Numbered from the stretch's first letter, positions 33,501 through 57,900 are shown. The stretch is 59,229 nucleotides of DNA from an uncultured Planctomycetales bacterium (GCA_964488935.1 CAZAVF010000002.1:1-59229); one strand, 5' to 3'. Translations and numbers: made by a program. The notes: generated by a model not told the origin, from the letters alone.

Positions 33501-33509
33501 TGGTATAAT
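33501..33509 (+). promoter_or_regulatory. Extended -10 promoter element (TGGTATAAT) in the 377-bp gap upstream of the GT2/RiPP-like cassette
   Basis: TGgTATAAT at 33501-33509. The same extended -10 wording recurs upstream of other operon starts in this window (45216, 58615, 1828). Confidence 0.45.
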
Positions 33510-34502: not shown

Positions 34503-34515
34503 GGTTCACGCCGTT

Positions 34516-35562: not shown

Positions 35563-35589
35563 TAATTAGAGAAGAGAAAGGGGTATTCC

Positions 35590-35751: not shown

Positions 35752-35766
35752 GCATTCAGCGGTAAG

Positions 35767-36759: not shown

Positions 36760-36770
36760 GGGAGGACTAT

Positions 36771-37043
36771 ATGGAAAAAGAAGTTTACGGGATAGACAAG
36801 GAAAGGGTAGCCTGGAGGGACATCGAAGGGGAGATAACGATACTAGACAAAAAGGCCGGGGAATTCTTTCATTTGAACGCCGCGGCCTGCAGGATATGGC
36901 ATTTGATCCAGGACGGAGCTTCGGTAGATGAGATTATTTCCGATCTCGGGGGACATTTTGACGCCGGAGAAGAAACGCTGCGCGGGGACATAACCGCTTT
37001 TGTGGGCGAACTTTCCGGGAAAGGGTTCATTAAACGGCAATGA
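36771..37043 (+). CDS. PqqD-family peptide chaperone (RiPP recognition element)
   Basis: 90 aa. VAWRDIEGEITILDKKAGEFFHLNAAACRIWHLIQDGASVDEIISDL...DITAFVGELSGKGFI is the textbook PqqD pattern. Confidence 0.85.
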   Translation: MEKEVYGIDKERVAWRDIEGEITILDKKAGEFFHLNAAACRIWHLIQDGASVDEIISDLGGHFDAGEETLRGDITAFVGELSGKGFIKRQ

Positions 37044-38116: not shown

Positions 38117-38132
38117 GTATCAGAGGAGGATT

Positions 38133-39110: not shown

Positions 39111-39919
39111 TCAGGAGCACCCAGGTTCTTTTCTCTTTAGTTCTTTCTGCCGGATTGACGCTTAACGTGTTCTCTTTCTGCCGGGCCGGCGACGTCCGGG
39201 CGGGACATGCCGTAAAAAGAGGGAACGGCGCCTCCGGGAAGACGTCCCCGGATGTCCCGGAGATTATTGCGAGAATGATGAACGCCTATGGCGGCGTAGA
39301 GCAGTGGCGGAACATAAACGGCTGGAGCATATTTTATACCGGGCTGTATAACTGCAAGCGGCCTTATGATCTCAGGATCTATGCTTCCCTGCCGGATAAA
39401 TTCAGGCTGGATTTCAAGTACACGGAAGGGAAACCGGACCTGTTCCAGATATTTTGTTCCGGAGACCGGGTGGAATATCTTAAGAACGGCGTCCGACTGG
39501 GGGACGCGGGGGAAAGCGCGGAACTGCAGGATATGGAACACATCCTTGCGGCGGCGAGAAGGCGGCAGGCCCCCGGGAGCCCGGTGGATTTCTACGACGA
39601 CCGCGGGCAGTATTATTTCGCCGGGGAAAGGACGCTCGGGGGCAGGAAGCATTACGTCCTGGAGAAAAAGGAACCGGTGCAGCGCGAAAAAAGAAGGGTC
39701 TTTGTCGACGAAGAGACATTTTTCGTGACCAAACGGGAGTTCGACAAAATAAGAGGCAAGTTCGTGGAGCTGTATATAAAAGGGGAACCTTTCAGGATCG
39801 GCGGGCTCGTTTATCCTTCGCAGCGCTGGGCTTACCATGACGGCAGGCTCGTCGACAAGCTGAAGGTGACTTTTTTATCCCTGGACTCTCCGGACGATAA
39901 AGTGTTCGACCTCCCCTGA
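39107..39919 (+). CDS. Secreted hypothetical protein, paralog B
   Basis: Signal-like N-terminus. MMNAYGGVEQWRNINGW...GRKHYVLEKKE blocks. ATGA overlap with paralog A. Confidence 0.65.
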   Translation: MIRSTQVLFSLVLSAGLTLNVFSFCRAGDVRAGHAVKRGNGASGKTSPDVPEIIARMMNAYGGVEQWRNINGWSIFYTGLYNCKRPYDLRIYASLPDKFRLDFKYTEGKPDLFQIFCSGDRVEYLKNGVRLGDAGESAELQDMEHILAAARRRQAPGSPVDFYDDRGQYYFAGERTLGGRKHYVLEKKEPVQREKRRVFVDEETFFVTKREFDKIRGKFVELYIKGEPFRIGGLVYPSQRWAYHDGRLVDKLKVTFLSLDSPDDKVFDLP

Positions 39920-39934
39920 GGCGAAGGAGGCATC

Positions 39935-40756
39935 TTGAAAAAGACACGGTTGGCGGCTGTCGTTGTTATGTTGTTCATCGCGGCTGCGGGCGCATATGTT
40001 TGTTCCCGTTCCCGCATCTCTCCCGGGCCCGCGCCGGACGCGGACGGATTGACCCCAAAGCAGATAACCGCCAGGATGATGGCGGCGGTGGGCGGAGAGG
40101 CGAATTGGCGGAAGGCGGAACGCAGCGGTTACAGTATGGCGTTCTCCATGGTGGATTACGCGGCGGGAGTGGACAGAAGGGTATGCGCCTCGATGCTGCC
40201 CGGCGGCAGGATGAGAATAGAATTCGAGACCTTCCGGGGGCCGCGGAAATTGACGCATTTGCTGCTTATCGAGACCCCGGGCAAACAGGCGGTCTTCGAG
40301 AACGGGAAACGGGTGTATCCGCCGTGGAACGGGCCGGAATATCAGTATCTACTGGAAAGCAGGCTGCAGGAAGAGCTGCCGAACCTGCCCACTTTCTTTC
40401 TCAAAATACACGAAGACGCGGATAGCGCCAGGTTAGTCGGCAAGAAGAATGTCCTCGGGAGCCCGTGCTATATCCTCTCGTGGAAGGGGCTTTTCAAGGA
40501 GAAACGCGCGGCCATCGACGCCGAGACTTTCTATCTGCGGGAAATAGAGATACTGAAACCGCACAAACGCATAGAGAAATATTATCAGAGGGACCGGAGA
40601 TTCGGCGACGTCTTCTTCCGCAGGGTCAAGGAGGTGTGGATCAACGGAAAGCCGAGGACCATATTACTGTTCTCGTATCTGTCGTTCGATCCCCCCGACG
40701 AAAGCCTGTTCCGTGCCGAAGATGACCGGCCGGAGCGCGCCGTCGGCGGCGAATAG
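39935..40756 (+). CDS. Secreted hypothetical protein, paralog C
   Basis: TTG start with GAAGGAGG RBS. Signal-like MKKTRLAAVVVMLFIAAAGAYVC. MMAAVGGEANWRKAE...GSPCYILSWKG blocks. Confidence 0.6.
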   Translation: MKKTRLAAVVVMLFIAAAGAYVCSRSRISPGPAPDADGLTPKQITARMMAAVGGEANWRKAERSGYSMAFSMVDYAAGVDRRVCASMLPGGRMRIEFETFRGPRKLTHLLLIETPGKQAVFENGKRVYPPWNGPEYQYLLESRLQEELPNLPTFFLKIHEDADSARLVGKKNVLGSPCYILSWKGLFKEKRAAIDAETFYLREIEILKPHKRIEKYYQRDRRFGDVFFRRVKEVWINGKPRTILLFSYLSFDPPDESLFRAEDDRPERAVGGE

Positions 40757-40842
40757 CGGCATCCGGCTCCTCCGCGTCATCGGCTCTGTACTTCTTAACC
40801 AGTGAAACATGTCCCCAGGTCCAACCGGAGCCCCGGAACCCG

Positions 40843-42378
40843 TCAAAACCCCCAGATTTTCCTGCCGATAGTTTTATTTATCGTCTCCCTGTCTTTTTCC
40901 TCGAATCCTTTATTGAAGAAGGACACGGCCAGATAAAGTGACACCGCGCACAAGAATGCGCCTGCCAGCGAGAACGCGTCTTTTATGAGCGGGCGCAGCA
41001 GGAATAACGGGACGGCGGACAGCAATATGTTGACGGTGAAGACGGCGAAAGACCTCCAGGGATATGCCAGGGGGATGATCCTGCCGGTGGCGGAACGGAA
41101 ATAGAGGATTATCGCGATCCCGGTGATCCCGGTGGCGAAGACCGCCCCCGGCACCCCGTAAAGCGGTATCAAGATAAGGTCCAGTGCCAGATTGAGCAGG
41201 GAGATCAGCCCGGTGATGAATATTATCCGCGTCCTTTCCAGCGTGAATAAAAGCGGTGTGTATACGAACCCGAACTGGTGCACGGCTATGAATGCCAGGG
41301 AAAGCCTGAACAGGTTGGCCGAACCGGCGTATTCCGGGTTCAGCAGGAAGAGGATTATCTTGTCCGCCAGCACCATGGCGAAGACGAACAGCGGGATCAT
41401 CAGGAAGTAAGTGATCCGGTTAAGGAACGAGAAGAGGTAGAAGAAATTACCGGTATCCTTTTCTTTCGTATAATTCCTGATGGAGACCGTTTTCAGGACG
41501 GGATGGAGCTTGTTCGCCGGTGAGAGCTGCATCAGCAGCAGGGGGATGCCGAAACAGACGGAGTATACGCCGACCTCCCGCTGTCCGAGAAAATAAGAGA
41601 TCAGGAAGATATCCAGGCCTTTTCTGCGGAAGAACTGCGTCAGTTTGTGGAAATAAAGGAACTTGGCGAAGTCGAAGAACCTTCTCAGCGGCAGCTTCAC
41701 TATATCCTCTTTCTTTACCGGCAGGAAGAAGATGTCCCTGCAGGCTTTGCCCATCAAGAGCGTGAAAAGCAGCGCCTCCGATATCAGCCAGCCCAGCAGT
41801 ATCCCGTTGATGCCGCGATGCAGCCGGAAAGCCAGGTAGAAGGAAACCAGCTTCACGAAGCTATAGGTTATGCTGCACAGGCTCCAGTAGAGGTTCTTGA
41901 AGAGGGAGACCATTGCGATGTCCCCCAGGAGATAGGATTCCGTGCTCAGCAGGGTTATGGCGGCGAGGACGGAGAACAGTTTGGCGGAATGCAGCGGGAG
42001 GTTGAAAACAGCCGCTATCTTCGTCCTGGCGAGAAATACGGCGGAGAGAACGGCCAAAAGCGAAAGCAGGCACAGCAGCATGGCGAAAGCCAGCACGCGT
42101 TTCTTCAGGTAGTTGTTCCCGGTCTCTTCGTATTCCGGAAGATATCTTTGTATTATCGAGTCGGTCCCGGCGAAGGCGACCGTCTGTATGAAGAATACTG
42201 CGGCGAGGAGGAAATTATAAAAGCCGAATTCTCCCACCGCGAGCTTCTTGAGCACGTAGATAAGGGAGAGAAAATTAAAAAGAGAGGCGGCCGCGGCGGT
42301 GAAATACTGGAAGAGAGAGGCGTGGAATCCGGCGCTCAGCAGCTTCAGCGAGAAAGAGGGACCGCCGGTCTTATCCAT
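40843..42378 (-). CDS. Polysaccharide/oligosaccharide flippase (MOP superfamily, Wzx-like)
   Basis: 511 aa, about 12-14 hydrophobic helices, with the typical basic loops of polysaccharide biosynthesis (Wzx) proteins. Confidence 0.7.
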   Translation of the reverse strand: MDKTGGPSFSLKLLSAGFHASLFQYFTAAAASLFNFLSLIYVLKKLAVGEFGFYNFLLAAVFFIQTVAFAGTDSIIQRYLPEYEETGNNYLKKRVLAFAMLLCLLSLLAVLSAVFLARTKIAAVFNLPLHSAKLFSVLAAITLLSTESYLLGDIAMVSLFKNLYWSLCSITYSFVKLVSFYLAFRLHRGINGILLGWLISEALLFTLLMGKACRDIFFLPVKKEDIVKLPLRRFFDFAKFLYFHKLTQFFRRKGLDIFLISYFLGQREVGVYSVCFGIPLLLMQLSPANKLHPVLKTVSIRNYTKEKDTGNFFYLFSFLNRITYFLMIPLFVFAMVLADKIILFLLNPEYAGSANLFRLSLAFIAVHQFGFVYTPLLFTLERTRIIFITGLISLLNLALDLILIPLYGVPGAVFATGITGIAIILYFRSATGRIIPLAYPWRSFAVFTVNILLSAVPLFLLRPLIKDAFSLAGAFLCAVSLYLAVSFFNKGFEEKDRETINKTIGRKIWGF

Positions 42379-43552
42379 GTTTGACCACGGTTGTATTCTC
42401 CGGCTCCCCTCCGCCGGAGAACAGCCTGCAGAGCATGAACAGGAAGCGTATCCTGTAGAGGGTTTCCGTTTTCTTCGCGTACAAGGGCAGCCCGTAGAAT
42501 TTGGCGAATTCCTCCCTGGTAACGCGGAGCACGTATTGCGCCGGCTCCAACAGGCAGTCGTAGAGAAGAAAATGGGACTGTAGATAAAGACGTTTCGGAC
42601 GGGAAAGCGCCCGCATATTCATGGCGTTCCTTTCCACGAACATCCTTATAAGCAGGCGTTTCCACGCCGGCACACGCAGCCGCTTCATTACCTGCCGCGG
42701 CGGACGGTAACCGGCGAAAAGTTCCGCCTGTATCAGCGCGAAGAAAAGTGTCGTCCGCATCCCGCCTTCCTCCGCTTCCCGGCAGACGTAGTCCCAATCG
42801 AAACTCCCGGCGTGCCGTTCGAGCAGGAGGGCGGCGTCGAGCGAGTTTTTAAGGCATAAGGGATCCCCGAACCTTCGCTGGTGCAGCGCCAGACTGAACA
42901 GAGTGTCCTCGGGAGAAAGCATATTTATCTGCGTCCCGCCGGTCCGGAACGCGCCGGTCCTTTTCCACATTTCCGGCAGTATGCGCTTGCGTCTTTTAAG
43001 GTCGACGGCAAAATGCAGCTCCAGCAGCCAGTTGCCGTCTTCCTTGAGAAAGGGGATATTGAGGTTCCGGTATCTCCAATAGTGATACGAGCCTTTCCCG
43101 AGATGTTTCCTGTAACCGTGTCTCTCCAGGAGACTTTCCGCTTTCTCCAGGTCCTCTTCCCGTACCAGGATATCCATGTCTTTCATCGGCCTGACGGGGT
43201 ATTGGCTGTAAATATCCGCCAGGAGGGCCAGACCTTTAAAAGGGAAGATATCGATATTCTCTCCCTTGAATATATTATGCAGTCTGATAAATTCCTCCTG
43301 GAACCGTATATTCCTGGCAAGGTTGAGGTCGTATTTCCTTTTCAGGTCGTCCAGTAACATTTTATCCGCCGTATCCTCGGAGCGCCTGAAGAGAAGATAG
43401 GCGAACGGCGTCAATTTATGATATTGCAGCATTTTTATAAGCGTCCAGCGGTCTATCCCGGCGTCGAGAGGGACCGGAACGGCCCCGGGATCGGCCCAGG
43501 CGGAGAGGATCTGTTTGAGAATAACCGCGGCCGGTTCCTTATCTTTTTTCAT
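42371..43552 (-). CDS. Nucleotidyltransferase-family protein (NTP_transf_5-like)
   Basis: ...ENIDIFPFKGLALLADIYSQYPVRPMKDMDILVREEDLEKAESLLERHGY....LLELHFAVD matches the 'uncharacterised nucleotidyltransferase' pattern (lKG..la...Y....R...DiDlLV......a...L...GY....lElH). Confidence 0.65.
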   Translation of the reverse strand: MKKDKEPAAVILKQILSAWADPGAVPVPLDAGIDRWTLIKMLQYHKLTPFAYLLFRRSEDTADKMLLDDLKRKYDLNLARNIRFQEEFIRLHNIFKGENIDIFPFKGLALLADIYSQYPVRPMKDMDILVREEDLEKAESLLERHGYRKHLGKGSYHYWRYRNLNIPFLKEDGNWLLELHFAVDLKRRKRILPEMWKRTGAFRTGGTQINMLSPEDTLFSLALHQRRFGDPLCLKNSLDAALLLERHAGSFDWDYVCREAEEGGMRTTLFFALIQAELFAGYRPPRQVMKRLRVPAWKRLLIRMFVERNAMNMRALSRPKRLYLQSHFLLYDCLLEPAQYVLRVTREEFAKFYGLPLYAKKTETLYRIRFLFMLCRLFSGGGEPENTTVVKHG

Positions 43553-45092
43553 AGCAATACACCCACATCCCCTGGAATTCCTTTTCCAGCTTCAATCTAA
43601 GACGGTCATCCAGTCTCTTTTTAACGAGATAAGAATTATAGTCCACGGTTTTTCCTCTCGGCCAGTCGCAGGCGAGGACGAAAAGCCTTTTGAACTCCAT
43701 GTCCCCGGTCTTGTCCAGCGGGATATTGAACTCGCTCTCTTTTTTGGGTTCCATATAACTCGGCGTAAGGCAGCCGGGGGCGAAAATAAAACGGAATCTG
43801 CCCAGGCGTCCGGCCTCGTTCTTTTTGCGCTTGTCGAAGAAAACGTGGTTTTTCCCTTCGCTGTACCAGATCAGGGGCAGTTTGAGGGAATCGTTGGTGA
43901 AGGCTATTATGTCCCCGTCCCCGGAATTCGCCTTGAGGAATTCCACCGCCGCTTTGAACGGTTTCTTCAGATGCACGCCGACGTGGTGGCTTAAGGCGGC
44001 CGGCATACGGTCGGTAAAGAAGCCGTGTATGCCCAAGGCGACAAGGAAAAAGGCCGCCGCCAGGAATACCGCGCGCAGTTTTCTTCCCAGGGCGTCCAAT
44101 CCGGCCCCCAGCAGCAGGTAGTAAAAAGGCGCGGAGACGATAAGCCCGCGGTCGAGGTACATAGGCACGAATAGACGTGAGAAGGCGAACGCGGCCAGCA
44201 CCGGGAAGGCGAGGAGCAGGCAGGAGAAGCCGGCCGTTTTCCTCTCCGCAGGATTTCTTTGTATCCTGCGGAGAGCGGCTGCGCACAGGACAACGGCGAC
44301 CGCATCGAAGAGCCGGTAGGCAGCCAGGGAGCTGTTATAGCCCAGCACGAAATTCTCGAGGGTTATCGGCAGCGATCTCCATCCCGGGGGAGGTATCCAG
44401 TATGCGTTGAGCGTGTGAGACAGTCTTGTCCAGGATTGCGCCAGCAGGGGGATAAAAGCGGCCGCGGTCAGCGCCGTCCACAACGCCGATCCCGACAGGC
44501 GGTCCTTCCCGGAATAAACGAAAAAACAGATCACCTGCGCCGCCGCGAAGAAAATGTAATAAGGATGGGTATAAATACCGGCTATGGCGCACGCCAGCGA
44601 CACGAAAATGTATTTGCGCGTTCCGTATGCGGGTCCTCCGTTGTCCTGCCGGACGATGGAAAGATACTGGAAATAGGCGGAGGCAAGGGCGCAGCATGCA
44701 AGCATACTGTAACAGCGCGCTTCCTGGGCGTACCACAACTGGAAAGGGGAGAGGGCCGTCAATAGCGCGGCATACAGCCCGCACCGCCTGTTGAAAAGCT
44801 CCTTGCCTAAAAGGTATACCAGGAGTACGCATATCGAATTGAACAACAATGAGGGGAACCGCAGGCTTGCCTCTGAGAATCCGAAGATCTTCGTCCAGCC
44901 GGCCATAATAAAATAATACAGCGAGGGATCCGGGATCTTGAATATGCTCAATTTGCATATCCGTATCACGGTAATTATTTCATCATACCAAAGGTCGTGG
45001 TATCCTATATGCCAGGCCCTGATGATAACGCCGGCCGTAAGGATCAGGCATGGTATCGCTGGGATACGTTTGGGGAAAGGGTCGTTGGTCAT
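43539..45092 (-). CDS. GT-C fold glycosyltransferase (family 39 / ArnT-PMT-like) with C-terminal soluble domain
   Basis: Multi-TM N-terminus with an early HDLWYDEIIT (D-E motif in the first loop) and about 11 helices. About 150-aa C-terminal non-membrane domain. Confidence 0.7.
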   Translation of the reverse strand: MTNDPFPKRIPAIPCLILTAGVIIRAWHIGYHDLWYDEIITVIRICKLSIFKIPDPSLYYFIMAGWTKIFGFSEASLRFPSLLFNSICVLLVYLLGKELFNRRCGLYAALLTALSPFQLWYAQEARCYSMLACCALASAYFQYLSIVRQDNGGPAYGTRKYIFVSLACAIAGIYTHPYYIFFAAAQVICFFVYSGKDRLSGSALWTALTAAAFIPLLAQSWTRLSHTLNAYWIPPPGWRSLPITLENFVLGYNSSLAAYRLFDAVAVVLCAAALRRIQRNPAERKTAGFSCLLLAFPVLAAFAFSRLFVPMYLDRGLIVSAPFYYLLLGAGLDALGRKLRAVFLAAAFFLVALGIHGFFTDRMPAALSHHVGVHLKKPFKAAVEFLKANSGDGDIIAFTNDSLKLPLIWYSEGKNHVFFDKRKKNEAGRLGRFRFIFAPGCLTPSYMEPKKESEFNIPLDKTGDMEFKRLFVLACDWPRGKTVDYNSYLVKKRLDDRLRLKLEKEFQGMWVYCYEKR

Positions 45093-45215
45093 ACATTCAC
45101 GGGCATGAGGTCCCTGTTTCAGGGAACATTTTACAATACCGGTATGTTTATGTCAAAAGCAAAAGAACTGCCGGTCGGTCATACGTTAAAATCCTGAGGG
45201 ATACCGGTTTAAAAA

Positions 45216-47630: not shown

Positions 47631-48527
47631 TCAACGCGATGCGTGCAGGACGGCGATGTATACGCCGGAGATTATCAGCGCAGCGCTGAATAATATCTTT
47701 TTGGTTATCCTTTCGTGTTCCCGGAGAAAGACGCGGCTGAGAAGCAGGGTGGCAAGCGGAGTGACGGCGAAGACGGGGACGACCAGCGAGACCTTCCCGT
47801 AAAGAAGGGATCCCAGGTCGGTGATCTCTCCCATTGAGGTCAGCAGGGCGGCGGAGACGATATATGCGGTCTCCCTGCGGTGAACGAAGAATTCCTTCAC
47901 CTCCTGCCGGTATTTCCCTCTTCTGCAGATAATATAAACGCTCATGCATGCGGAAGCGCTTGTCGCCGCCACCGCCGAGGCGAATACCGGATGCGGCATG
48001 ATACCGAGACCGTATTTTCTCAAGTTCGCGGCAAGTCCGGCCAGGACGGCCGCGCACACCGGGTAGAGCAGATGGGCCTTTCTGTAGCGCTCCGAGTCCC
48101 CCTGTTCGCGGGTTATCAGCACCGTGCCGGCGATTATCAGCGCGATGCCGGCGAATATCGGCGGCCCGGGCGATTCCCCCAGCATCCTGACCGCGATAAG
48201 CACGGCGAAGAGAGGCGTCAGCGCCCGCAGCGGGGCGGCGCGTCCGGCTCCGAGCGTGTGTATGCCGTAATAAGTGAGCGTTCTTACCAAAGGGGGGGCG
48301 AACATCCCTATGACCGCGAAGACGATTATCCCTGCGCGGCAGGAAAAATAAGCTTCCCCGCCGGTGCAGAAAGTTATCAGCCAGAGGAATACCGTGCTGA
48401 GCAGCACCGAAAAGAAGGATACCAGGAACGGGCTAAGCCTGGCAAAGCCTTTCTTAAGCAGGATATTGGAGGACGCGGTGATCAGGGCCATCAGCAATGC
48501 CAGAAATACGGCCGTTTGCATATACAC
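47631..48527 (-). CDS. EamA/DMT-superfamily transporter
   Basis: 298 aa, about 10 TM segments in two-fold repeat organisation. The N-terminus ...ALITASSNILLKKGF is typical of EamA. Confidence 0.75.
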   Translation of the reverse strand: MYMQTAVFLALLMALITASSNILLKKGFARLSPFLVSFFSVLLSTVFLWLITFCTGGEAYFSCRAGIIVFAVIGMFAPPLVRTLTYYGIHTLGAGRAAPLRALTPLFAVLIAVRMLGESPGPPIFAGIALIIAGTVLITREQGDSERYRKAHLLYPVCAAVLAGLAANLRKYGLGIMPHPVFASAVAATSASACMSVYIICRRGKYRQEVKEFFVHRRETAYIVSAALLTSMGEITDLGSLLYGKVSLVVPVFAVTPLATLLLSRVFLREHERITKKILFSAALIISGVYIAVLHASR

Positions 48528-48684: not shown

Positions 48685-48713
48685 TTGACAAGCCGGAACA
48701 GGTATTTTAATAT
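48685..48713 (+). promoter_or_regulatory. Strong sigma70-like promoter
   Basis: TTGACA (48685-48690), 17-nt spacer, TAATAT (48708-48713). About 210 nt upstream of the SDR start codon. Confidence 0.6.
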
Positions 48714-48927
48714 ATAGTTTAATCCCCTCTTCCAGGGATCTCCGGATTAAAGCCAGGGGATAAATATGGGAATGCTTCGGGGATGTCGCGGGAAAAGGCA
48801 AGAGCCTCCGGTTTTAACCCGGGGAACTTCACCCGCTGTGGTCCCGTATGTAAATACGGCCGTTTACGGCGGCTCCCCGGAACAGCGTGTACGGACAGCC
48901 GTTGCACAGGCAAAGGAGAAGAATAGA

Positions 48928-49704
48928 ATGGATCAAGGGATGCAAGGAAAAACAGCCATCGTTACCGGGGCCAGCAGGGGCATCGGCAGGGCCCTGGCTT
49001 GCAGCGCCGCCGGACTGGGGGTAAACCTGGCCATCGCCGCCCGGCAGTATGAGCCGCTTAAAGCCACTGCGGAGGAGATATCGGGAAAATTCGGGGTCAA
49101 GGTACTGCCGGTTGCCGCCGACGTCACCAAACTCGACGATCTGCGCGCCCTGGTGGATAAGACCAGGGAGGAATTCGGCTCAATAGATATACTTATAAAC
49201 AATGCCGGCGTCTCCAGCCAGTATCCTTTCCAGCAGCAGCCGATAGAGGATTTCGAGAAACTGGTCTATACGAACTATCTCGGCTACGTCAGATTGATAA
49301 GACTGGTGATAGATGAGATGATACAGAAACGCTCCGGCGCCATCATCAATATGGTTTCCGGCTCCACGCTTTGCGATCCCATACCGAGAAATTTCCTCGT
49401 TTACAGTTCCCTTAAAGTAGGCCTGCGGGCTTTTTCCAAAGGGTTGTTCTGGGAATTGCGCGATTACGGGATCAAGGTGACCTCCATCCTTCCGGGAGTC
49501 ACCGATACCGATCTTACCGGCAAGCTCAGCGAAATAACGGCCGATGCCTCCAGGTTGATGAGCACCGAGGCCATAGAGAACGCGGTGAAATTCGCCCTTA
49601 CCGTTCCGGCCAACGTCTGCCCGCTGGAGATATCCGTGATCAACCAGCAGACGCCCTGGACGGCCCCGGTCATCCCTTTTAAACAGCAGCATCCCGGCAA
49701 ATAA
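48928..49704 (+). CDS. Short-chain dehydrogenase/reductase (SDR)
   Basis: GKTAIVTGASRGIGRALA (TGxxxGxG), NNAG, and the YSSLK (YxxxK) catalytic motif. The start was moved to the ATG at 48928, preceded by an AAGGAGAAG RBS. Confidence 0.85.
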   Translation: MDQGMQGKTAIVTGASRGIGRALACSAAGLGVNLAIAARQYEPLKATAEEISGKFGVKVLPVAADVTKLDDLRALVDKTREEFGSIDILINNAGVSSQYPFQQQPIEDFEKLVYTNYLGYVRLIRLVIDEMIQKRSGAIINMVSGSTLCDPIPRNFLVYSSLKVGLRAFSKGLFWELRDYGIKVTSILPGVTDTDLTGKLSEITADASRLMSTEAIENAVKFALTVPANVCPLEISVINQQTPWTAPVIPFKQQHPGK

Positions 49705-49717: not shown

Positions 49718-50134
49718 TTGGACGAGAAAGACGTTCTATCCCTGAAAAGGAGGTATCTGCTCTGGCTTTACAAGACCACCAAGGAGGCATTTGACCGTTA
49801 CGAGCGCAAATTCACCCAGCTGGAGATAGACAGATTCATCCTGGAGGAGATCTCCAGGGAGTGCCGGCAGGCGTATCTTTCCGATGAAAAAGAGGAGATC
49901 GGCAAGCAGGTGGAAGCGATGCGCGGTTATGTGTCGGAAAAAGAGAACGCCTGTCTTAAACTGAAATACCGGGGGAAAAAGATAAACCCGGAATATCTGT
50001 TCCTGGACATAAAACTTCAGGCGCTGGAGAAAGCGATCGTCAGGGAACTCGGCAACGAGGAATTGCAGCGTATTAAAACTCTCTACGAGCAGGAGATGTC
50101 GGAGAGGATACTCCATTCCAGGGAAGAAAAATAG
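49718..50134 (+). CDS. Hypothetical protein (helical, charged)
   Basis: TTG start 7 nt after an AAGGAG RBS. 138 aa, no recognisable family. Confidence 0.5.
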   Translation: MDEKDVLSLKRRYLLWLYKTTKEAFDRYERKFTQLEIDRFILEEISRECRQAYLSDEKEEIGKQVEAMRGYVSEKENACLKLKYRGKKINPEYLFLDIKLQALEKAIVRELGNEELQRIKTLYEQEMSERILHSREEK

Positions 50135-50161: not shown

Positions 50162-51079
50162 ATGATAATCGACGCCCACTGCCATTGGCTGCCGGAAGAG
50201 ATAATCACCAGCGCGCATTTTTTCTCCAGGGCCTGGGGTGATATCGAGGCCGGCCTGTCCTCCATGGAGGCCAACGGCATAGACGCCGCGGTCCTGACGT
50301 ACCCCTCCAGCGACGCGCATCTTAAGCTGGGCGGTTACGCGGCGGCCGCGGATATATTCAACGCCAACCTCGCGCTCCTGGTAAAAAAGTATCCCGGCAG
50401 GGTCATCGGTTCGGCGGTGCTGCCTTTCGGGGACGGGAAAGCTATGGCGGATGCGGTACGCCGCGCCCATGAAGAGCAGGGGCTGCGCGCGGTTTCCCTG
50501 GCGAGCAGTTACGGCGGGGTGTTCCTGGATGACGCGATGTTCGAACCCGCTTACCGGGCCGCCGCCGGGGCCGGTATGCCGGTATTCGTGCATTCCCAGA
50601 CGGTATCCCCGGCCGGCAGCGAGCGCGTCGACGATCCGCTGTTGACCCCGGTGGTGGAATACGTTTTCGACATCACGCTCTGCATCGGGAAGATGCTTAT
50701 GTCCGGCCTCCTGCGGGAATACGCGGGGGGCATAAAGTTCATTTTCGCCAATTCCGGCGGGGCGATACCTTATCTCGCCGCGCGTTTCGACGACACTTAC
50801 AGGATGCTGCGCGGGGTGAATTTCGTCAAGGACCTCGGCTCCGATCCCTCGGAGCAGCTGCGCGGCATCTACGCGGACACCGGGGGGGAAAGGGAAAGCG
50901 CCGCCCTGCTGCCGGCCCTGCGGTTCTTCGGACCCGACAAGCTGCTCTGGGGCAGCGACTGGCCGGCGAAAAAGGACGCCGCCGCATCGTTGAAAGCGGT
51001 GAGGGGACTGGGGCTGGGGAAAAGGGAAGAAGATGGGATAACCGGAGGCACTCTTGCCTCCCTTTTGGGCATCTCATAG
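50162..51079 (+). CDS. Amidohydrolase_2 (ACMSD-like metal-dependent hydrolase/decarboxylase) family protein
   Basis: MIIDAHCHWLPEE N-terminal metal-binding HxH motif, and a C-terminal LLWGSDWP motif. Confidence 0.75.
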   Translation: MIIDAHCHWLPEEIITSAHFFSRAWGDIEAGLSSMEANGIDAAVLTYPSSDAHLKLGGYAAAADIFNANLALLVKKYPGRVIGSAVLPFGDGKAMADAVRRAHEEQGLRAVSLASSYGGVFLDDAMFEPAYRAAAGAGMPVFVHSQTVSPAGSERVDDPLLTPVVEYVFDITLCIGKMLMSGLLREYAGGIKFIFANSGGAIPYLAARFDDTYRMLRGVNFVKDLGSDPSEQLRGIYADTGGERESAALLPALRFFGPDKLLWGSDWPAKKDAAASLKAVRGLGLGKREEDGITGGTLASLLGIS

Positions 51080-51112: not shown

Positions 51113-51865
51113 ATGAAAATGGTGAAGGACGTGCATCTGACCGGAAAAGATCTTACAGCGATGGTCCAGCTCAGGCCGCAGGACGTGGGTAAATACGCGG
51201 TCGTGCCGGGCCCCCGCGACAGGCTTGACGTGCTGATGAAGAAGATAGAGGAGCCCGTGCGCAATTTTTCCTTCATGGAATACACTATGTATACCGGGAC
51301 ATACAAAGGGGTGAAGATCACCGCCATCAACGGCGGCAGGTTCTCCACCGATACCGCCATCACCGCCGAGGTGATCTGTCATTCCGGCATAAAGAACGTC
51401 GTCCGCATCGGCACCTGCGGCGCCCTGGACGAGAAGATGAAGGTCGGGGACCTGGTTATTGCGGATACAGTGCTGCGGGGCGACGGGGTAACTCCTTATT
51501 ACGTGGACGGTTCTTTCGTCACAAAGGCGGACAAACAGCTCTCCGACGTGCTTTTCTCGTCGGCGGAGGCGGCCGGGGCGTCCGTGCACCGCGGATGCGT
51601 CTGGAGCACCGACGCTTTATTGAGGGAGACCAGGGAGATAGTGGAGGACAAACGCGCCAAAGGGGCGGTGGCGGTGGACATGGTCTCCTCTTCCCTGTTG
51701 ACCATCGCGCAGTTCTATAACGTGCGCGCTGCCTCCATTCTGGCGGTCAGCGACAACGTTATCACCGGGGAAATGGGTTTTATGAACCCTCTGTATTACA
51801 TGGCGGAGACGAAATTGATAGAAATAGCGCTGGCGGCAGTGCTGCAACTGGAAGGGAAGAAATGA
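51113..51865 (+). CDS. Nucleoside phosphorylase, PNP_UDP_1 family (uridine / purine / MTA-5'-deoxyadenosine phosphorylase-like)
   Basis: YAVVPGPRDRLDVL (GDPxR-like), VVRIGTCGAL and AVAVDMVSS motifs typical of hexameric nucleoside phosphorylases. Confidence 0.75.
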   Translation: MKMVKDVHLTGKDLTAMVQLRPQDVGKYAVVPGPRDRLDVLMKKIEEPVRNFSFMEYTMYTGTYKGVKITAINGGRFSTDTAITAEVICHSGIKNVVRIGTCGALDEKMKVGDLVIADTVLRGDGVTPYYVDGSFVTKADKQLSDVLFSSAEAAGASVHRGCVWSTDALLRETREIVEDKRAKGAVAVDMVSSSLLTIAQFYNVRAASILAVSDNVITGEMGFMNPLYYMAETKLIEIALAAVLQLEGKK

Positions 51866-52794
51866 AATCCTCCCCGTTATTCTGGCCGGTCTTCCTTAAA
51901 GGAAGGACTATAAGCGTACTGGACGAGACGTCGCTTCCCGGCGTTCCCCGCTATCTTAAGGTCGCGGGTTACCGGCAATCGGTGCAGGTGATCAGGCGCA
52001 TGCAGACCAGGGCGATCGGGCAGGTGCTGCTCGTGATGTATACTTTCCTGCTGGAGATCAGGAAAAGCGGGGGAAAGCCGGACCTGCAGGGTCTGGAAAG
52101 GGCCGCGCAGGCGCTTAATTCGGCCCGTCCCACACTGCCGTTCAAAATGCTTACCGGCATGGTCCTGGGCTGGGCGCAGGCCGGGGAACCGGTGGAACAG
52201 AGGATATCGGGTTTCCTTGATAAATTGAAAGCCGCCAGGACAGCGCAGGCCGGGGAAGCCTCCGCGCTTTTCAATGACGGGGACAGCGTGCTTACGCACT
52301 GCAACGTCAGCGGGCTTCTGCCTTTGATCGCGGGCCTTTGCCGGCAAAAAGGCAAAGTCATTTCTTTTTATGCCACCGAGACCAGGCCTTACTGGCAGGG
52401 CAGCCGCCTGACGGCCTGGGAATTGAAAAAAGCCGGGGTGCAGGTGACGGTGATAACCGACGGCATGGCGGCGCAGGTGATGAAGGAGAAAAGAGTCAAT
52501 AAGGTCATCACCGGGGCCGACCATCTTGCGGCCAACGGGGACATCGCCAACAAGATCGGCACGCTGCAGCTGGCGATCTGCGCGAAATACTTCGGGCTGC
52601 CTTTTTACGTGCTTTGTCCGCCTCCTTCGAAGGCGGACAGCGGGGAGGATATAAAGATCGAGGTCAGGGAAGGGAAGGAATTGCTCTCTTACCGCGGGCT
52701 GAAGTTCGCCCCGTCCGGAGTGGAGGCTTATTACCCGGCTTTCGACGTCACCCCCGCAGGGCTTATCACTCAACATATCCATATGAGGTTTTGA
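51862..52794 (+). CDS. mtnA: eIF-2B alpha/beta/delta-related sugar-1-phosphate isomerase (MtnA-like 5-methylthioribose-1-P / 5-deoxyribose-1-P isomerase)
   Basis: ETRPYWQGSRLTAWEL and VITGADHLAANGDIANKIGTLQLAICAK match the MtnA/M1Pi signatures. ATGA overlap with the upstream gene. Confidence 0.75.
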   Translation: MKSSPLFWPVFLKGRTISVLDETSLPGVPRYLKVAGYRQSVQVIRRMQTRAIGQVLLVMYTFLLEIRKSGGKPDLQGLERAAQALNSARPTLPFKMLTGMVLGWAQAGEPVEQRISGFLDKLKAARTAQAGEASALFNDGDSVLTHCNVSGLLPLIAGLCRQKGKVISFYATETRPYWQGSRLTAWELKKAGVQVTVITDGMAAQVMKEKRVNKVITGADHLAANGDIANKIGTLQLAICAKYFGLPFYVLCPPPSKADSGEDIKIEVREGKELLSYRGLKFAPSGVEAYYPAFDVTPAGLITQHIHMRF

Positions 52795-52796
52795 AG

Positions 52797-53810
52797 ATGA
52801 CGCAGAGACCGGGGAAAGAAAAGGCCGAGGCAGAACTGATTGAGACGGGCAGGGAGCTTTACCGCTGCGGCATGGCGGTGGCGTCCTCCGGTAACCTGAG
52901 CGTACGGCTCGACGATAAATATATCCTGATCACCGCTTCCGGAAGCAGGCTCGGCAGGCTTTGCCCCGAAGACATGGTCTGCGTGGAGCTTGATCCCGGG
53001 GTGTCCGGGGATGGCAGGGCCCCCAGTTCCGAACTGCCGATGCATGCGATGATATATAAAGAATTCCCGGAGATAAAAGCCGTCCTGCATTGCCATCCGC
53101 CTTTCGTAAACGGTTATTTCAGCGTAAGGGATTCTTTCAAGCCGCTTACTTTCGAGGCGTCTTTTTATCTCGGGAATGTCCCGGTGGTGCCGCAGGACAC
53201 CCCCACCGTGACCAGGCCGCAGGAGGTCATCCCGGCCCTGCGGCAGGGGAATCTTATAGTCCTGAAGAACCACGGCATAGTCTCGGCGGCCTGCGATATG
53301 GCCAAGGCCCTTGACCTGGCGCAGACGCTGGAGGAGTCCATAAAGACCGCGGCGCTGGCGCGCCTGTTCTCCTGCGGACCGGGATCTTCGTCCGCGGACG
53401 CGAAAACGGACCGCGCGGCGGCCGCCGGAGAGGCTTACCGGATGTTCTCCCCGGAGCATATAGACGCCATCGTAGACCTGGTGAACAGCGACGCCTTTAT
53501 CTCCGCAAAAGGCAGGGAACTGGAGCTTACCCTGCAGCTTTCGGTGGTGCTGGATGAAGACGGGACCGCTTATAAGTTCTTTTTTCAGCAGGGCAGGATC
53601 GTTTCCGTGGACCGCAATTCAGACGCTCCGTTCGTGATCTCGGCCCCGGCATCGGCCTGGAGAGAGGTCTTCTCCGGACGGCTCGACCCGTTCACGGCGG
53701 TGACCCAGGGGAAAATGAAGCTCAAGGGACAGCTCGGCCAGCTTTCCCGCTGGTACGTGCCGTTCAGCAGGCTGTTCGAGCTTTTCAAACAGGTGCCGGT
53801 ATCGTCATGA
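52797..53810 (+). CDS. Class II aldolase/adducin-family protein fused to a C-terminal SCP2 sterol-carrier-like domain
   Basis: SGNLSVRLDDKYILITASGSRLGRL, ELPMHAMIYKEFPEIKAVLHCHPP (metal His ligands). C-terminal ...FTAVTQGKMKLKGQLGQLSRW resembles the SCP2 GKlkikGdm motif. The start was moved to the ATG at 52797. Confidence 0.75.
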   Translation: MTQRPGKEKAEAELIETGRELYRCGMAVASSGNLSVRLDDKYILITASGSRLGRLCPEDMVCVELDPGVSGDGRAPSSELPMHAMIYKEFPEIKAVLHCHPPFVNGYFSVRDSFKPLTFEASFYLGNVPVVPQDTPTVTRPQEVIPALRQGNLIVLKNHGIVSAACDMAKALDLAQTLEESIKTAALARLFSCGPGSSSADAKTDRAAAAGEAYRMFSPEHIDAIVDLVNSDAFISAKGRELELTLQLSVVLDEDGTAYKFFFQQGRIVSVDRNSDAPFVISAPASAWREVFSGRLDPFTAVTQGKMKLKGQLGQLSRWYVPFSRLFELFKQVPVSS

Positions 53811-55291
53811 ATACCAGGCTTTTCATAGACGGCAGGTTCGTTCCCGGGAGCTTAAGGAAGACAGTGTTCAATCCCTCCAGCGGAGAGCCGTTGTGCGAAG
53901 CGGAGCTGGCCATGGAGCCGGAACTGGAAGCGGCGCTGGAGCGCGCGCGCAGGGCTTGCGATTCCGGCTGCTGGAAGGACTTTTCTCCCGACAGACGGCG
54001 GGAATGCCTGTTTAAGATGGCCTCCGGTATCCGCGAGCGCGCCGCGGAACTGGCGCAGTTGGAGACTTTGAACGCCGGCAAGCCGATAAAAGAGACCACC
54101 TTCATGGACGTCCCTTCTTCCGCCCGGGCCTTTGAGGAGATCGCCGCCCATTTCGAGGAATACCTGATAGATCCGGCGGCGGCAGGGCTCCCGCCCGAGG
54201 CCGAGAGCCGTCTGCTGCGGGAGCCGCTGGGCGTGGTCCTGCTTATCGTCCCCTGGAATTATCCTCTTTTGATAGCCTGCTGGAAACTCTCCTGCGCCCT
54301 TGCCGCCGGCAACTGCGTGATATTGAAACCGTCGTCGCTTACTCCTTTAAGCGCGATAGCCCTGGCCGAAATAGCCTGCGCGGCGGGAATACCGCCGGGG
54401 GTGTTGAACGTGGTCAATTGCGAAGGGGAACTGGCGGGGAGAAAGCTCTGCGCCGACTCCAGAGTAGATATGGTATCGTTTACCGGCAGTAACGAAAGCG
54501 GAGGGACCATCCTCGGGCACACCGCCCTTTCCCCGAAGAAGACGCTGATGGAACTGGGAGGGAAATCCGCAGCCATGGTCTTCGCCGGCAGCGATCTGGA
54601 GACCGCGGTGAACAGCTGCCTGGTCTCCGTGTTCCTGAACCAGGGGCAGATGTGCACGGCGATGTCGCGCATACTGGTGGAAGAGAGCATTTACGACGCT
54701 TTCTGTTCGAAATTCGCCTCCGGGGCCGGAAGGATCTCGGTCGGCGACGCCGCCGATTTCCAGACGCAGATGGGACCGCTTATATCGCAGAGGCAGAGGG
54801 AACTGGTCTCTTCCCGGGTGGAGGAGGCTTTGAGCCGGAAGGCGGAATTGCTTTGCGGGGGCAGGGCGCCGGCAGGAGAGGGCCTTGGCCGCGGGTTTTT
54901 TTACGAACCGACGGTGTTGGCGGGAGTGACCGCGGAAATGGATATCTTCCGCCGCGAGGTCTTCGGACCTGTGGCGGCGCTGTGCAGGTTCAAAGGGCAG
55001 GAAGAGGCGCTGCGTCTTTGCAACGACTCCGATTACGGGCTTGCCGCTTCCATCTGGACGGGGGATGAAGACGCGGCCCTGAAACTTGCGGCGGGGGTAA
55101 ACTCCGGCACGGTCTGGATAAATACCTACGGGATGTTCTATCCGGGGCTGCCGTACGGCGGATTCAAAAAAAGCGGGTTCGGCAAAGAGTTGGGGCTGGC
55201 GGGATTCCTTGAATACACGCGCCTGAAGAACGTGGTGCTGGACAGGAGCGAAGGCGGCAAACCACTGGTGAATTACTGGTACGGTTTCTGA
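53807..55291 (+). CDS. NAD(P)+-dependent aldehyde dehydrogenase
   Basis: VPWNYPLL, ELGGKSA and NQGQMCTAMSR (catalytic Cys) motifs. ATGA overlap with the upstream gene. Confidence 0.9.
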   Translation: MNTRLFIDGRFVPGSLRKTVFNPSSGEPLCEAELAMEPELEAALERARRACDSGCWKDFSPDRRRECLFKMASGIRERAAELAQLETLNAGKPIKETTFMDVPSSARAFEEIAAHFEEYLIDPAAAGLPPEAESRLLREPLGVVLLIVPWNYPLLIACWKLSCALAAGNCVILKPSSLTPLSAIALAEIACAAGIPPGVLNVVNCEGELAGRKLCADSRVDMVSFTGSNESGGTILGHTALSPKKTLMELGGKSAAMVFAGSDLETAVNSCLVSVFLNQGQMCTAMSRILVEESIYDAFCSKFASGAGRISVGDAADFQTQMGPLISQRQRELVSSRVEEALSRKAELLCGGRAPAGEGLGRGFFYEPTVLAGVTAEMDIFRREVFGPVAALCRFKGQEEALRLCNDSDYGLAASIWTGDEDAALKLAAGVNSGTVWINTYGMFYPGLPYGGFKKSGFGKELGLAGFLEYTRLKNVVLDRSEGGKPLVNYWYGF

Positions 55292-55325
55292 ATGGATAAA
55301 GCGTGATTTCTTACAAGGGGGGGGA

Positions 55326-56834
55326 ATGAACGCAGCTGCATTACTGGAAAAACAGGCGCTGGAGCATCCGGAAAAAACGGCTTTCGTTTTCCGGGGAGAG
55401 GAATTCAGTTTCCGGAGGTTAAAGGAGACGGTTTTTCCCTTGGCATCGGCCTTGTCTTCCCGCGGCATAGTCAAAGGGGATAGTGTCGCTTTATACCTGC
55501 CGGGCTGCCCGGAATACATCTTCAGCTACCTGGCTGTCTGGTGTATCGGCGCGACCGCGGTGCCGCTTGATTTTATGCTTACCACCGACGAATTGCTCTC
55601 CTGCCTGGGGCATTGCGGGGCGAAAACGCTGATCATGCGCGAAAAGGCAGGGGTTTCGGCCTGCGGGTTAAAAGAAAGACTGCCCGCGCTCTCTTCGGTC
55701 TTTGTCTGCAATCCCAAAGATACGCCTTTGCCATCCGGAGTATTCCCGTTCAAGGCGCTCCTGGAAAAAGAGCGCGATTTTTCCGGGTTCCCCGTCCCGG
55801 CGGATTCCGATCCGGCGATAATCTTCTACACTTCCGGCACCACCGGCAAGCCCAAGGGCGTGCTCGTAAACTACCGTCAGCTGGAAGCGCCGCCTAAGGC
55901 CATGGAGTATTTCGTGGACCTCAGCGGAAAAGACGCGGCCCTCTGCGCGCTGCCTTTCTCTCATCTCGGAGGTCTGATCTATATCCAGGGCTGCCTCGTG
56001 TATTCGCTTACTTTCGTGCTTATGGAGCGTTTTATTCCTGCGGAGTTCCTGAAGACGGTGGCGGAAAGAAAGATCACCTGTTTCTGGATAGTCCCTTCCA
56101 TGTATTACGCCCTGCTGCAATTGAAAGAGTTCGAGAGTTCCGACCTGTCGAGCCTGCGCTGGGTGGTGACTTTCGGCGCTTCCAGCTCTCCGGAAGCGCT
56201 GCGCAGGTTCCAGAAATTCTGTCCCGGCGCGCAGCTCCTGAACGGCTGGGGCATGACCGAGACCAACGCCCCGACCGTGGTGCTTCCCAGGGGTTCGTCG
56301 AAGATAGAAAGCGTGGGGAGGCCTGCGCCGTGGGTTGACATAAGCATATTGGATGAGAACGACAGGCCTGCGCCCGCCGGCGCGGTGGGCGAAGTGGCGG
56401 TGCGCGGCTGGGTGGTCACCGACGGTTATTTCAAGGACCCGGCGCTGACGGCAGAGAGTATGCGCGGGGGGTGGTTTCATACCGGGGACCTGGGGCGCAT
56501 AGACGCCGAGGGGGATCTTTTCATCGTGGGCCGGAAGAAAGAGATGATCAAGGTCGGGGGGGAGATCGTTTTTGAGCCGGAAGTGGAGTCGGTGTTGCTG
56601 CGTCATCCTGCCGTGGCTGAAGCCGCGGTGGTCGGAGTCCCCGACAAACTGCGCGGGGAAGTCCCCAAGGCATGGGTGGTGCTGAAACAGGAAGCCGCCG
56701 TTTCCGCGGAAGACCTGCGGTATTTCTGCCGCGAACATCTGGCGCGTTTCAAGGTCCCGCACCAGATAGAATTCCTGTCCGTCCTGCCCAAGAACCGCTC
56801 CGGCAAGAACGATAAAGAACGATTGCGCCTGTAG
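55326..56834 (+). CDS. AMP-dependent synthetase/ligase (acyl-CoA synthetase family)
   Basis: IFYTSGTTGKPKGV (AMP-binding motif), GWGMTET, WFHTGDLG, and the C-terminal PKNRSGK. Confidence 0.9.
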   Translation: MNAAALLEKQALEHPEKTAFVFRGEEFSFRRLKETVFPLASALSSRGIVKGDSVALYLPGCPEYIFSYLAVWCIGATAVPLDFMLTTDELLSCLGHCGAKTLIMREKAGVSACGLKERLPALSSVFVCNPKDTPLPSGVFPFKALLEKERDFSGFPVPADSDPAIIFYTSGTTGKPKGVLVNYRQLEAPPKAMEYFVDLSGKDAALCALPFSHLGGLIYIQGCLVYSLTFVLMERFIPAEFLKTVAERKITCFWIVPSMYYALLQLKEFESSDLSSLRWVVTFGASSSPEALRRFQKFCPGAQLLNGWGMTETNAPTVVLPRGSSKIESVGRPAPWVDISILDENDRPAPAGAVGEVAVRGWVVTDGYFKDPALTAESMRGGWFHTGDLGRIDAEGDLFIVGRKKEMIKVGGEIVFEPEVESVLLRHPAVAEAAVVGVPDKLRGEVPKAWVVLKQEAAVSAEDLRYFCREHLARFKVPHQIEFLSVLPKNRSGKNDKERLRL

Positions 56835-56871: not shown

Positions 56872-57900
56872 ATGCTCGACATAAAAGATCTGTCTTTAGG
56901 GGAGCTCAAGGAACGGTTTGAGGCCGGAGGTATACGGCCTTTTCACGCGGAGCAGGTTTTTTCCTGGATATACAAGAAGACGGCGGAGACGTTCCGGGAA
57001 ATGAGCGACCTGCCAGCGCCACTCAGGGAATATCTCTCTTCGGCTTTTCTTGTATACGGCGCCGTTGTCGCGCACAGACTGGTCTCAAAGGACGGGACCG
57101 TGAAACTCCTTTCCAGGCTGGCGGACGGGAACATGATAGAATCCGTGCTTATCCCGGCGGAGCGCAGGATGACGGGGTGTATCTCCGTCCAGGCCGGCTG
57201 CAGGCTGCGCTGCGCCTTTTGCGCCAGCGGCGCTCTGGGATTGAAAAGGGACCTGACCTGCGGGGAACTGCTGGAGCAGGTCTGCCGTCTGCAGAAAGAG
57301 GCCGGAGGCCGGCTCACCCACCTGGTCTTTATGGGAACCGGGGAGCCTTTCGAGAATTACGACAATCTTATCAAGGCCGTCAGGATGATCAATTCAAAAG
57401 AGTCATTCCATATCGGCGCCAGGCGCATTACCGTTTCCACGTCGGGCATACTGCCCGGGATAGCCCGTCTCGCCGGGGAAAAGCTGCAGGTCGAGCTTTC
57501 CGTATCTTTGCACGCCGCGGACAATGAATTAAGGAGCCGGCTCATGCCGGTAAACAAGGTTTATCCTTTACCGCGGCTGCTGGCGGCCTGCAGGGATTAT
57601 TCACGCAAGACAGGCAGGCAGGTGACGTTTGAATACATATTGATCAAAGGGGTAAATTCCTCTTTGCCAAACGCGGTTAAATTATGTAAAATATTAAGAG
57701 GCGGGGGATACAAGGTCAATCTGATCCCGCTTAATCCTCTGCCGTCCATGGAATGGCGTCCGCCTTCCGCGGCGGAAACGGCCGTGTTCAGCTCGTTCCT
57801 GCGGAAACATGGCGTGCAGGCCACGGTCAGACAGCCGCGCGGGCGGGACATAGAGGCTGCCTGCGGACAATTGAGACTGCAATACGCGCACAACCGGTAG
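56872..57900 (+). CDS. rlmN: 23S rRNA (adenine2503-C2)/tRNA methyltransferase RlmN (radical SAM)
   Basis: The N-terminus L..LS..EL.......G..PFHAEQVFSWIYKK, then SVQAGCRLRCAFCASG, GTGEPFENYDN and a C-terminal EAACGQL. Confidence 0.9.
   Translation: MLDIKDLSLGELKERFEAGGIRPFHAEQVFSWIYKKTAETFREMSDLPAPLREYLSSAFLVYGAVVAHRLVSKDGTVKLLSRLADGNMIESVLIPAERRMTGCISVQAGCRLRCAFCASGALGLKRDLTCGELLEQVCRLQKEAGGRLTHLVFMGTGEPFENYDNLIKAVRMINSKESFHIGARRITVSTSGILPGIARLAGEKLQVELSVSLHAADNELRSRLMPVNKVYPLPRLLAACRDYSRKTGRQVTFEYILIKGVNSSLPNAVKLCKILRGGGYKVNLIPLNPLPSMEWRPPSAAETAVFSSFLRKHGVQATVRQPRGRDIEAACGQLRLQYAHNR

Follow-up and report, generated by a model that had tools for sequence, protein, structure and literature searches.

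A DHAP-shunt-type module probably dedicated to a ketosynthase/B12-radical-SAM cluster of Omnitrophota

Disposal of 5-deoxyribose through the dihydroxyacetone phosphate (DHAP) shunt has been described for the enzyme set MtnP (or MtnN plus MtnK), MtnA and Ald2, and for DrdK, DrdI and DrdA in Bacillus thuringiensis (PMC6079011, PMC10986504). We analysed five adjacent genes (51113-56834) of a related kind in a 59,229-nt DNA stretch from an uncultured Planctomycetales bacterium (GCA_964488935.1 CAZAVF010000002.1:1-59229). This whole stretch is called the window, and coordinates are counted from its first letter. The five genes encode a nucleoside phosphorylase (PNPlike), an MtnA-type isomerase (IF2Blike), a class II aldolase fused to an SCP2 domain (AldSCP2), an aldehyde dehydrogenase (ALDH) and an AMP-forming ligase (AMPlig). 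Comparative analysis indicated that this module is probably dedicated to an Omnitrophota cluster containing ketosynthase (KS) genes and a gene for a B12-dependent radical S-adenosylmethionine (SAM) enzyme (B12rSAM), and that it would cleave a 5'-deoxyadenosine-type nucleoside of the linked radical-SAM enzyme into DHAP and an activated acid.

Related chemistry is known from biosynthesis. The fluoroacetate route of Streptomyces cattleya and the chloroethylmalonyl-CoA route of salinosporamide proceed by phosphorolysis of a SAM-derived 5'-substituted 5'-deoxyadenosine, and ribose carbons are used biosynthetically (PMC9516700). In hopanoid side-chain formation, the adenosylhopane synthase HpnH is accompanied by the phosphorylase homolog HpnG (PMC13459092). 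Both 'ladderane-type' clusters and clusters with a KS and a chain-length factor (CLF) have been noted in Omnitrophota (PMC9902471, PMC10132072), and neither these two reports nor PMC13459092 mention an attached nucleoside-cleaving module.

The module resembles the DHAP shunt in its three predicted reaction types, their order and the intact catalytic residues, and, as in the Bacillus system, its isomerase is paralogous to that of methionine salvage. It differs from the shunt in that the phosphorylase is DeoD/uridine-phosphorylase-like rather than MtnP-like and has a remodelled sugar pocket, in that the aldolase carries an SCP2 domain, in the attached ALDH and FadD-type ligase, and in its placement in, and distribution with, a KS/CLF and B12-radical-SAM cluster. 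The succession of phosphorylase, isomerase, aldolase and aldehyde dehydrogenase is also that of the fluoroacetate route. Unlike in that route and the salinosporamide route, however, the linked SAM enzyme is a B12-radical-SAM enzyme, and a search of the window genome (1.75 Mb, 86.6% complete) found no fluorinase/chlorinase gene (SAM_HAT, PF01887). As in the hopanoid pathway, a PNP_UDP_1 phosphorylase accompanies a radical SAM enzyme, with RND/MMPL exporters nearby; in contrast, the phosphorylase missed the HpnG cut-off (TIGR03468, 61 against 187.1 bits), the cluster has no HpnH-type enzyme, and neither an isomerase nor an aldolase acts in the hopanoid route. The wider cluster is like those of type II polyketide synthases and the 'ladderane-type' (PMC10132072, PMC9902471, PMC13459092) in combining an active KS and a dead partner with an acyl carrier protein (ACP), a short-chain dehydrogenase/reductase (SDR), an SRPBCC protein, a cyclase and a B12-radical-SAM enzyme. 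What is new is a variant of a DHAP-shunt-type pathway embedded in an uncharacterised KS/B12-radical-SAM cluster.

The homologs of the aldolase were named Candidatus Omnitrophota, with 'Ca. Undivivens industriae' as the closest named genome. Omnitrophota are uncultured, tiny and widespread anaerobes, and we know of no specialised lipids or polyketides from them. The window proteins were mapped onto 80 species-level loci retrieved from Omnitrophota. The same larger cluster was present in 80/80, so its arrangement is not due to chance. Its approximately 17 genes are ordered as KS, KS-like, B12-radical SAM, ACP, PF04199 cyclase, (cupin), SRPBCC, (major facilitator superfamily transporter, MFS), SDR, (CBM_11-like), 138-aa protein, Amidohydro_2, (variable genes), phosphorylase, isomerase, aldolase-SCP2, ALDH, (variable genes) and ligase, and an ApbA-like reductase is also included. 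The gene set was kept through at least four rearrangements of gene order. One rearranged lineage has the order AMPlig-PNPlike-ApbA-KS-KS...IF2Blike-AldSCP2-ALDH, and more distant families have AMPlig-PNPlike-IF2Blike-AldSCP2-ALDH-B12rSAM-ApbA-KS-KS-ACP. In another family, AMPlig-B12rSAM-PNPlike-IF2Blike-AldSCP2 is followed by an MMPL/LolA-like/DUF1302 lipid export set, with no ketosynthase nearby. The ligase moved jointly with the phosphorylase in the rearranged clusters. In the lineage of locus L029 both shifted to the cluster head, and a class IV aminotransferase/aminodeoxychorismate lyase-like gene (L029, 7296-8105) occupies the old slot of the phosphorylase.

The KS pair of the cluster is predicted to consist of an active enzyme and a catalytically dead, KS/CLF-like partner. 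In the window genome (contig C53) and one relative, KS1 had the Cys-His-His triad, and KS2 had Arg, Asp and Asn at these positions. The dead partner of the window genome (L098, 8896-10086) thus carries Arg at the position of the active-site Cys, unlike the CLF of type II polyketide synthases, for which Gln is found there in actinobacteria. A third KS homolog, encoded on contig C16 and sharing about 33% identity with the cluster KS, is a candidate for the housekeeping FabF. A housekeeping FabF/AcpP role for the cluster KS and ACP was rejected, given this third KS and the make-up of the pair. Contig C53 terminates with the ApbA gene, a gene for a 201-aa protein and the KS pair, and contig C81 opens with the cyclase, SRPBCC and MFS genes. 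An assembly gap takes in the B12 enzyme and the ACP, the latter seen in relatives only. A genome of the same genus likewise had the B12rSAM ortholog and the aldolase on separate contigs. The cluster is split in this genus, and the window holds its second half under a promoter of its own. The adjacency of the module to the radical-SAM glycan/peptide island upstream is therefore specific to the lineage, and it was confined to the lineage of the window.

In a sample of 301 Omnitrophota genomes, the module was present in only about 80, roughly a quarter. The fused aldolase was found in 79, the ortholog of the cluster B12-radical-SAM enzyme in 73 and the atypical phosphorylase in 77. The fused aldolase occurred together with the B12 enzyme in 71 genomes (71/79) and with the phosphorylase in 74, and 218/301 had none of the three; these counts are descriptive, not a statistical test. 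Canonical MtnA was present in 257/301 genomes, independently of whether they had the module. First-look counts of B12-radical-SAM-like candidates were similar in module-free genomes, which argues that the module does not follow the radical-SAM load.

The substrate of the module would presumably be the product of the linked radical-SAM enzyme, a link for which the DHAP shunt (PMC6079011) and HpnH/HpnG (PMC13459092) serve as precedents. Judging from the chemistry of the families, the phosphorylase would remove the purine base from the 5'-deoxyadenosine-type nucleoside made by that enzyme, and the MtnA paralog would convert the sugar 1-phosphate to a ketose 1-phosphate. The aldolase would then release DHAP and an aldehyde, which the dehydrogenase would convert to an acid for activation by the ligase. 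As to the 5' substituent, we lean slightly towards hydrogen. Plain 5'-deoxyadenosine would then be processed to acetate and acetyl-CoA, and the module would be a built-in recycling loop. The substituent could also be a larger hydrophobic group, a possibility favoured by the SCP2 domain and by the type of the ligase (FadD). A dedicated loop recycling a by-product inside a biosynthetic cluster would be unusual; the alternative is that the ribose carbons of SAM serve as a building block. 'Ladderane-type' clusters are flagged by genome-mining tools in many anaerobes and are unexplained. The five soluble enzymes offer a practical route to their function.

Profile comparison assigned the phosphorylase to the hexameric DeoD/uridine phosphorylase branch. 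Its best models were uridine phosphorylase and DeoD, each below its own cut-off, whereas the MTAP model TIGR01694 (cut-off 274.85) gave only 22.8 bits. The protein retains the Arg, Arg and Thr that bind phosphate, and also the purine-type Asp (SDN), which protonates purines. However, the Met-Glu pair that binds the ribose hydroxyls was replaced by Met-Val (VDMVSS), and a Phe-Tyr pair by Leu-Leu. These replacements recur in the family, since VDMVSS was kept in at least 95% of 54 phosphorylase orthologs and the DALL motif with the Leu-Leu pair was conserved in the family consensus. The phosphorylase was also the best-conserved member of the module. From these replacements (ME to MV, FY to LL) it appears to be an atypical copy with a remodelled sugar pocket.

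The isomerase scored under the cut-off of the MtnA equivalog model (TIGR00512, 217.6 against 279) and above that of the subfamily model (TIGR00524, 190.8 against 185.85). It retained the catalytic Cys and Asp of MtnA (LTHCN; GAD..NGDIANK), had a 7-residue deletion in the loop after the Cys, and was 36% identical to the canonical MtnA of the same genome. The protein is a short, divergent MtnA paralog. In distant families, the isomerase and aldolase genes are separated by a second IF-2B-like open reading frame (ORF) of half size, ~140-165 aa (Table 1).

In the aldolase, the Aldolase_II match covered residues 13-184 and the SCP2 match (PF02036) residues 250-314, the latter with 30.6 bits against a curated cut-off of 21.3. 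The SCP2 domain matched the Thermus SCP2 structures 1wfr and 2cx7. An AlphaFold model showed two domains, the aldolase (residues 1-192) and SCP2 (residues ~209-337, or ~53421-53807), connected by a disordered linker (residues 193-208). The original prediction, made from the DNA of the window, had placed the SCP2-like domain at 53484-53807 and regarded the fusion as atypical. The fusion is real, but it is no local oddity, being the rule in the family (79/301 genomes plus split forms). H98, H100, H159, E79 and the SGN and SSE motifs were invariant in 16 homologs; all three His that bind the metal are kept, as are the catalytic Glu and the site for the DHAP phosphate. The aldolase scored 75 bits to an Aquifex MtnB-like protein (N-terminal half only), 67 to 6voq, 62.8 to DrdA (6btd) and 54 to FucA, and no NCBIfam cut-off was reached. 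Relatives with a stand-alone aldolase domain amounted to only 16 cluster representatives at E<=1e-30, among which no link to Ald2/DrdA was found; the named ones were Omnitrophota proteins or bore generic 'fuculose aldolase' labels.

The SCP2 domain was more conserved than the catalytic domain of the aldolase, and it tracked the cluster as a fused domain or a separate adjacent gene. In the split form of locus L115, the aldolase gene is followed by a separate SCP2 gene (111 aa), the ALDH gene and the B12 enzyme gene. The domain was gone where only an aldolase remnant stayed. Ten of the 301 genomes had an aldolase without SCP2, and 0/10 had the phosphorylase or the B12-radical-SAM ortholog; in the examples inspected, this aldolase was a remnant beside RlmN. 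AldSCP2 was the sole Aldolase_II gene and the sole SCP2 gene of the window genome.

The ALDH motifs ELGGK and GQxC, present in 65/65 orthologs, are those of the hydrolytic type, which oxidises the aldehyde to the acid. Its nearest solved relatives were phenylacetaldehyde and aminobutyraldehyde dehydrogenases. The ligase is of the FadD type and far from acetate-CoA ligase models, with 432 bits to PRK06187 against only 245 to acetate-CoA ligase and FadD5 as the nearest solved relative.

Several observations weigh against the dedicated role. Every characterised member compared has a Glu that binds the ribose 2'/3' hydroxyls, and PNPlike has none; the phosphate-binding Arg contributed by the neighbouring subunit is replaced by Met in the window protein. 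Because of these two losses, the substrate of PNPlike may not be a ribonucleoside, or the protein may lack phosphorylase activity altogether. One contig carried the aldolase, ApbA, Aminotran_4, ligase and MMPL genes and had neither phosphorylase nor isomerase. Because the sampled genomes are related rather than independent, the support is weaker than their co-occurrence counts suggest. Bacillus has a dedicated 5-deoxyribose cluster alongside paralogous genes for methionine salvage (PMC6079011), so paralogy alone is no argument against plain salvage.

The alternative that survived best, though we consider it unlikely, is that the 5'-deoxyadenosyl group is added by the linked radical SAM enzyme to a hydrophobic intermediate, either acyl or polyketide, and that the module trims the adenosine to a two-carbon aldehyde or acid stub on the lipid while SCP2 holds the hydrophobic part. 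It would account for the SCP2 domain, which is fused to or adjoins the aldolase only where the cluster is present, for the remodelled pockets of the phosphorylase and isomerase, and for the FadD-type ligase. The resemblance of the ALDH to phenylacetaldehyde dehydrogenase and the lipid exporters in or beside the cluster are consistent with it, and HpnH, which acts on diploptene, provides a precedent together with HpnG (PMC13459092). However, the B12-radical-SAM enzyme of the cluster had BchE and HpnJ, rather than HpnH or MqnE, as its nearest relatives. We know of no adenosylating activity in this class of B12-radical-SAM enzymes, which also counts against adduct formation. SCP2 folds can have purely structural roles, and lipid holding is a putative function here. 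If adducts are indeed processed, two ribose carbons of SAM would stay on the molecule as aldehyde, acid and thioester, a new oxygen-free way to build carbon skeletons from SAM.

The role favoured by the original prediction was a general DHAP shunt that detoxifies 5'-deoxyadenosine or methylthioadenosine (MTA) arising from the organism's numerous radical SAM enzymes, those of the adjacent island included, with ALDH and ligase leading on to acetyl-CoA. We regard this as quite unlikely. Its enzymology was well founded, since the trio of the shunt is there with catalytic residues that look intact, and the genome has no other class II aldolase. The original prediction had asked whether the other methionine-salvage genes are missing, and searches of the genome (86.6% complete) turned up no MtnB, acireductone dioxygenase (ARD) or RuBisCO-like gene. 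Methionine salvage is thus not present as a full pathway. The MtnB model (cut-off 137) gave the aldolase 63.8 bits, with a match to the N-terminal half only. The genome is also rich in radical SAM genes. Nine were verified in the window, RlmN included, where ten had been predicted, and contig C3 carries at least nine B12-binding paralogs within ~27 kb (~18.7-45.2 kb). Moreover, the Bacillus case provides a precedent for dedicated paralogous clusters (PMC6079011).

Against the general shunt, a canonical MtnA (414.7 bits against the equivalog cut-off of 279) and a true MtnP, the MTA phosphorylase (304.1 against 274.85 bits, contig C23), are encoded on other contigs of the window genome, each adjoining unrelated genes. 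The phosphorylase and isomerase of the module are extra, divergent copies beside them. The module was absent from about three quarters of the sampled Omnitrophota, which had canonical MtnA and similar first-look counts of B12-radical-SAM-like candidates, and it followed one B12rSAM ortholog and the KS cluster through the rearrangements. The adjacency to the island is limited to one lineage, and a general shunt leaves the SCP2 fusion without a role. As for the proposed continuation from aldehyde to acid to CoA thioester, a hydrolytic ALDH and a ligase are present, but the ligase is FadD-like rather than acetate-specific. The original prediction is partly supported: its chemistry is borne out, and the role it proposed is not. 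Elsewhere in the same genome, a third PNP_UDP_1 gene (L013, contig C19, 1396-2115, minus strand; 239 aa), with no NCBIfam match, adjoins a radical SAM gene resembling that of spore-photoproduct lyase.

Ordinary catabolism of purine nucleosides, in which ribose 1-phosphate would pass through ribulose 1-phosphate to DHAP and glycolaldehyde and then to glycolate, is very unlikely. The DeoD-like phosphorylase with its purine-type Asp would suit it, and the ribulose-1-phosphate aldolase model did match the aldolase, but weakly, at 70 bits far under the 300-bit cut-off. The loss of the ribose-binding Glu speaks against it, as does tight linkage to a B12-radical-SAM/KS cluster instead of genes for nucleoside transport or pentose use. 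In the characterised families, each of the three reactions can run in either direction. Nevertheless, a reversed, biosynthetic pathway, in which the aldolase joins DHAP to a hydrophobic aldehyde and the isomerase and phosphorylase build a 5'-alkyl nucleoside, hardly deserves credence despite the reversibility of DrdA (PMC6079011) and a SCP2 domain that could hold a fatty aldehyde, because the translationally coupled hydrolytic ALDH would destroy the aldehyde substrate and the gene order fits the cleavage direction.

Table 1. Coordinates of the module, its operon and flanking features in the window, and of half-size ORFs in related loci.
Feature	Position	Strand	Evidence or remark
EamA transporter gene	47631-48527	minus	divergent from operon
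Promoter-like site (TTGACA, 17-nt spacer, TAATAT)	48685..48713	+	10/12 consensus matches, best of the region
Leader ahead of SDR start, ~200 nt	48714..48927	+	
SDR ketoreductase, FabG-like	48928..49704	+	Pfam adh_short E 1e-48
Conserved 138-aa protein	49718..50134	+	no match in Pfam/NCBIfam
Amidohydro_2 protein	50162..51079	+	Pfam E 3e-22
Nucleoside phosphorylase (PNPlike), PNP_UDP_1	51113..51865	+	Pfam E 1e-37
MtnA-type aldose-1-phosphate isomerase paralog (IF2Blike), IF-2B	51862..52794	+	Pfam E 3e-53
Class II aldolase-SCP2 fusion (AldSCP2)	52797..53810	+	Aldolase_II E 6e-41; SCP2 30.6 bits
NAD(P)-dependent non-acylating aldehyde dehydrogenase (ALDH)	53807..55291	+	Aldedh E 1e-150
AMP-forming acyl-CoA or acyl-carrier ligase, FadD type	55326..56834	+	AMP-binding E 1e-81
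RlmN	56872-57900	+	equivalog score reached
GDSL hydrolase	to 58577	+	last of ten-gene run
Half-size IF-2B-like ORFs	L106 10699-11115; L107 13656-14030; L108 18349-18726; L115 1450-1947		

The module lies in a plus-strand run of ten genes with very short or negative spacers, which begins beyond the divergent EamA gene (Table 1). Pfam domains bore out the gene order given in the original prediction, from phosphorylase to ligase, and the SDR, Amidohydro_2 and small protein genes do lie upstream as it described. The ATGA coupling it reported between aldolase and ALDH was read in the sequence (53807-53810), as was a second ATGA overlap at 51862-51865; 2 nt separate the isomerase stop from the aldolase start. 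A convincing terminator was sought inside the operon and none was found. Phosphorylase to ligase form one tight operon with the three upstream genes. The SDR, the 138-aa protein and the Amidohydro_2 protein are members of the KS/B12 cluster and not shunt enzymes.

The SDR gene lay between SRPBCC/MFS and Amidohydro_2 in most relatives. Judging from its orthologs, which were 257-258 aa long, the ORF start at 48766 lies too far upstream. A riboswitch in the leader was rejected, as an Rfam search gave no match at E up to 5; the leader (48714-48927) may represent a new regulatory RNA that arose with the split of the cluster in this genus. The 138-aa protein had no match in Pfam or NCBIfam but 41 orthologs. 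Its AlphaFold model was a four-helix bundle (predicted local distance difference test score, pLDDT, 90), for which Foldseek found no match in the PDB at E<=0.001. The Amidohydro_2 protein had LigW, ACMSD and IDCase as its best solved relatives, and it is closest to the non-oxidative aromatic-acid decarboxylases.

The site between Amidohydro_2 and phosphorylase behaves as a variable insertion point. A gene for a CrcB fluoride channel with DUF190 is inserted there in locus L008 (7605-8305), and MazG or uncharacterised genes in other relatives. The CrcB gene prompted us to consider a halogenase-fed pathway, which was dropped with no SAM_HAT gene in the genome. Downstream of the ligase, RlmN and the GDSL hydrolase are conserved neighbours outside the module. 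Their adjacency was kept in the family of the window and absent from the distant arrangements, and it remained where the cluster is lost. Elsewhere in the window, a stretch at ~33500-45200 that holds a peptide cassette was absent from the otherwise collinear relatives L001-L003 and had a lower G+C content (0.54 vs 0.58).

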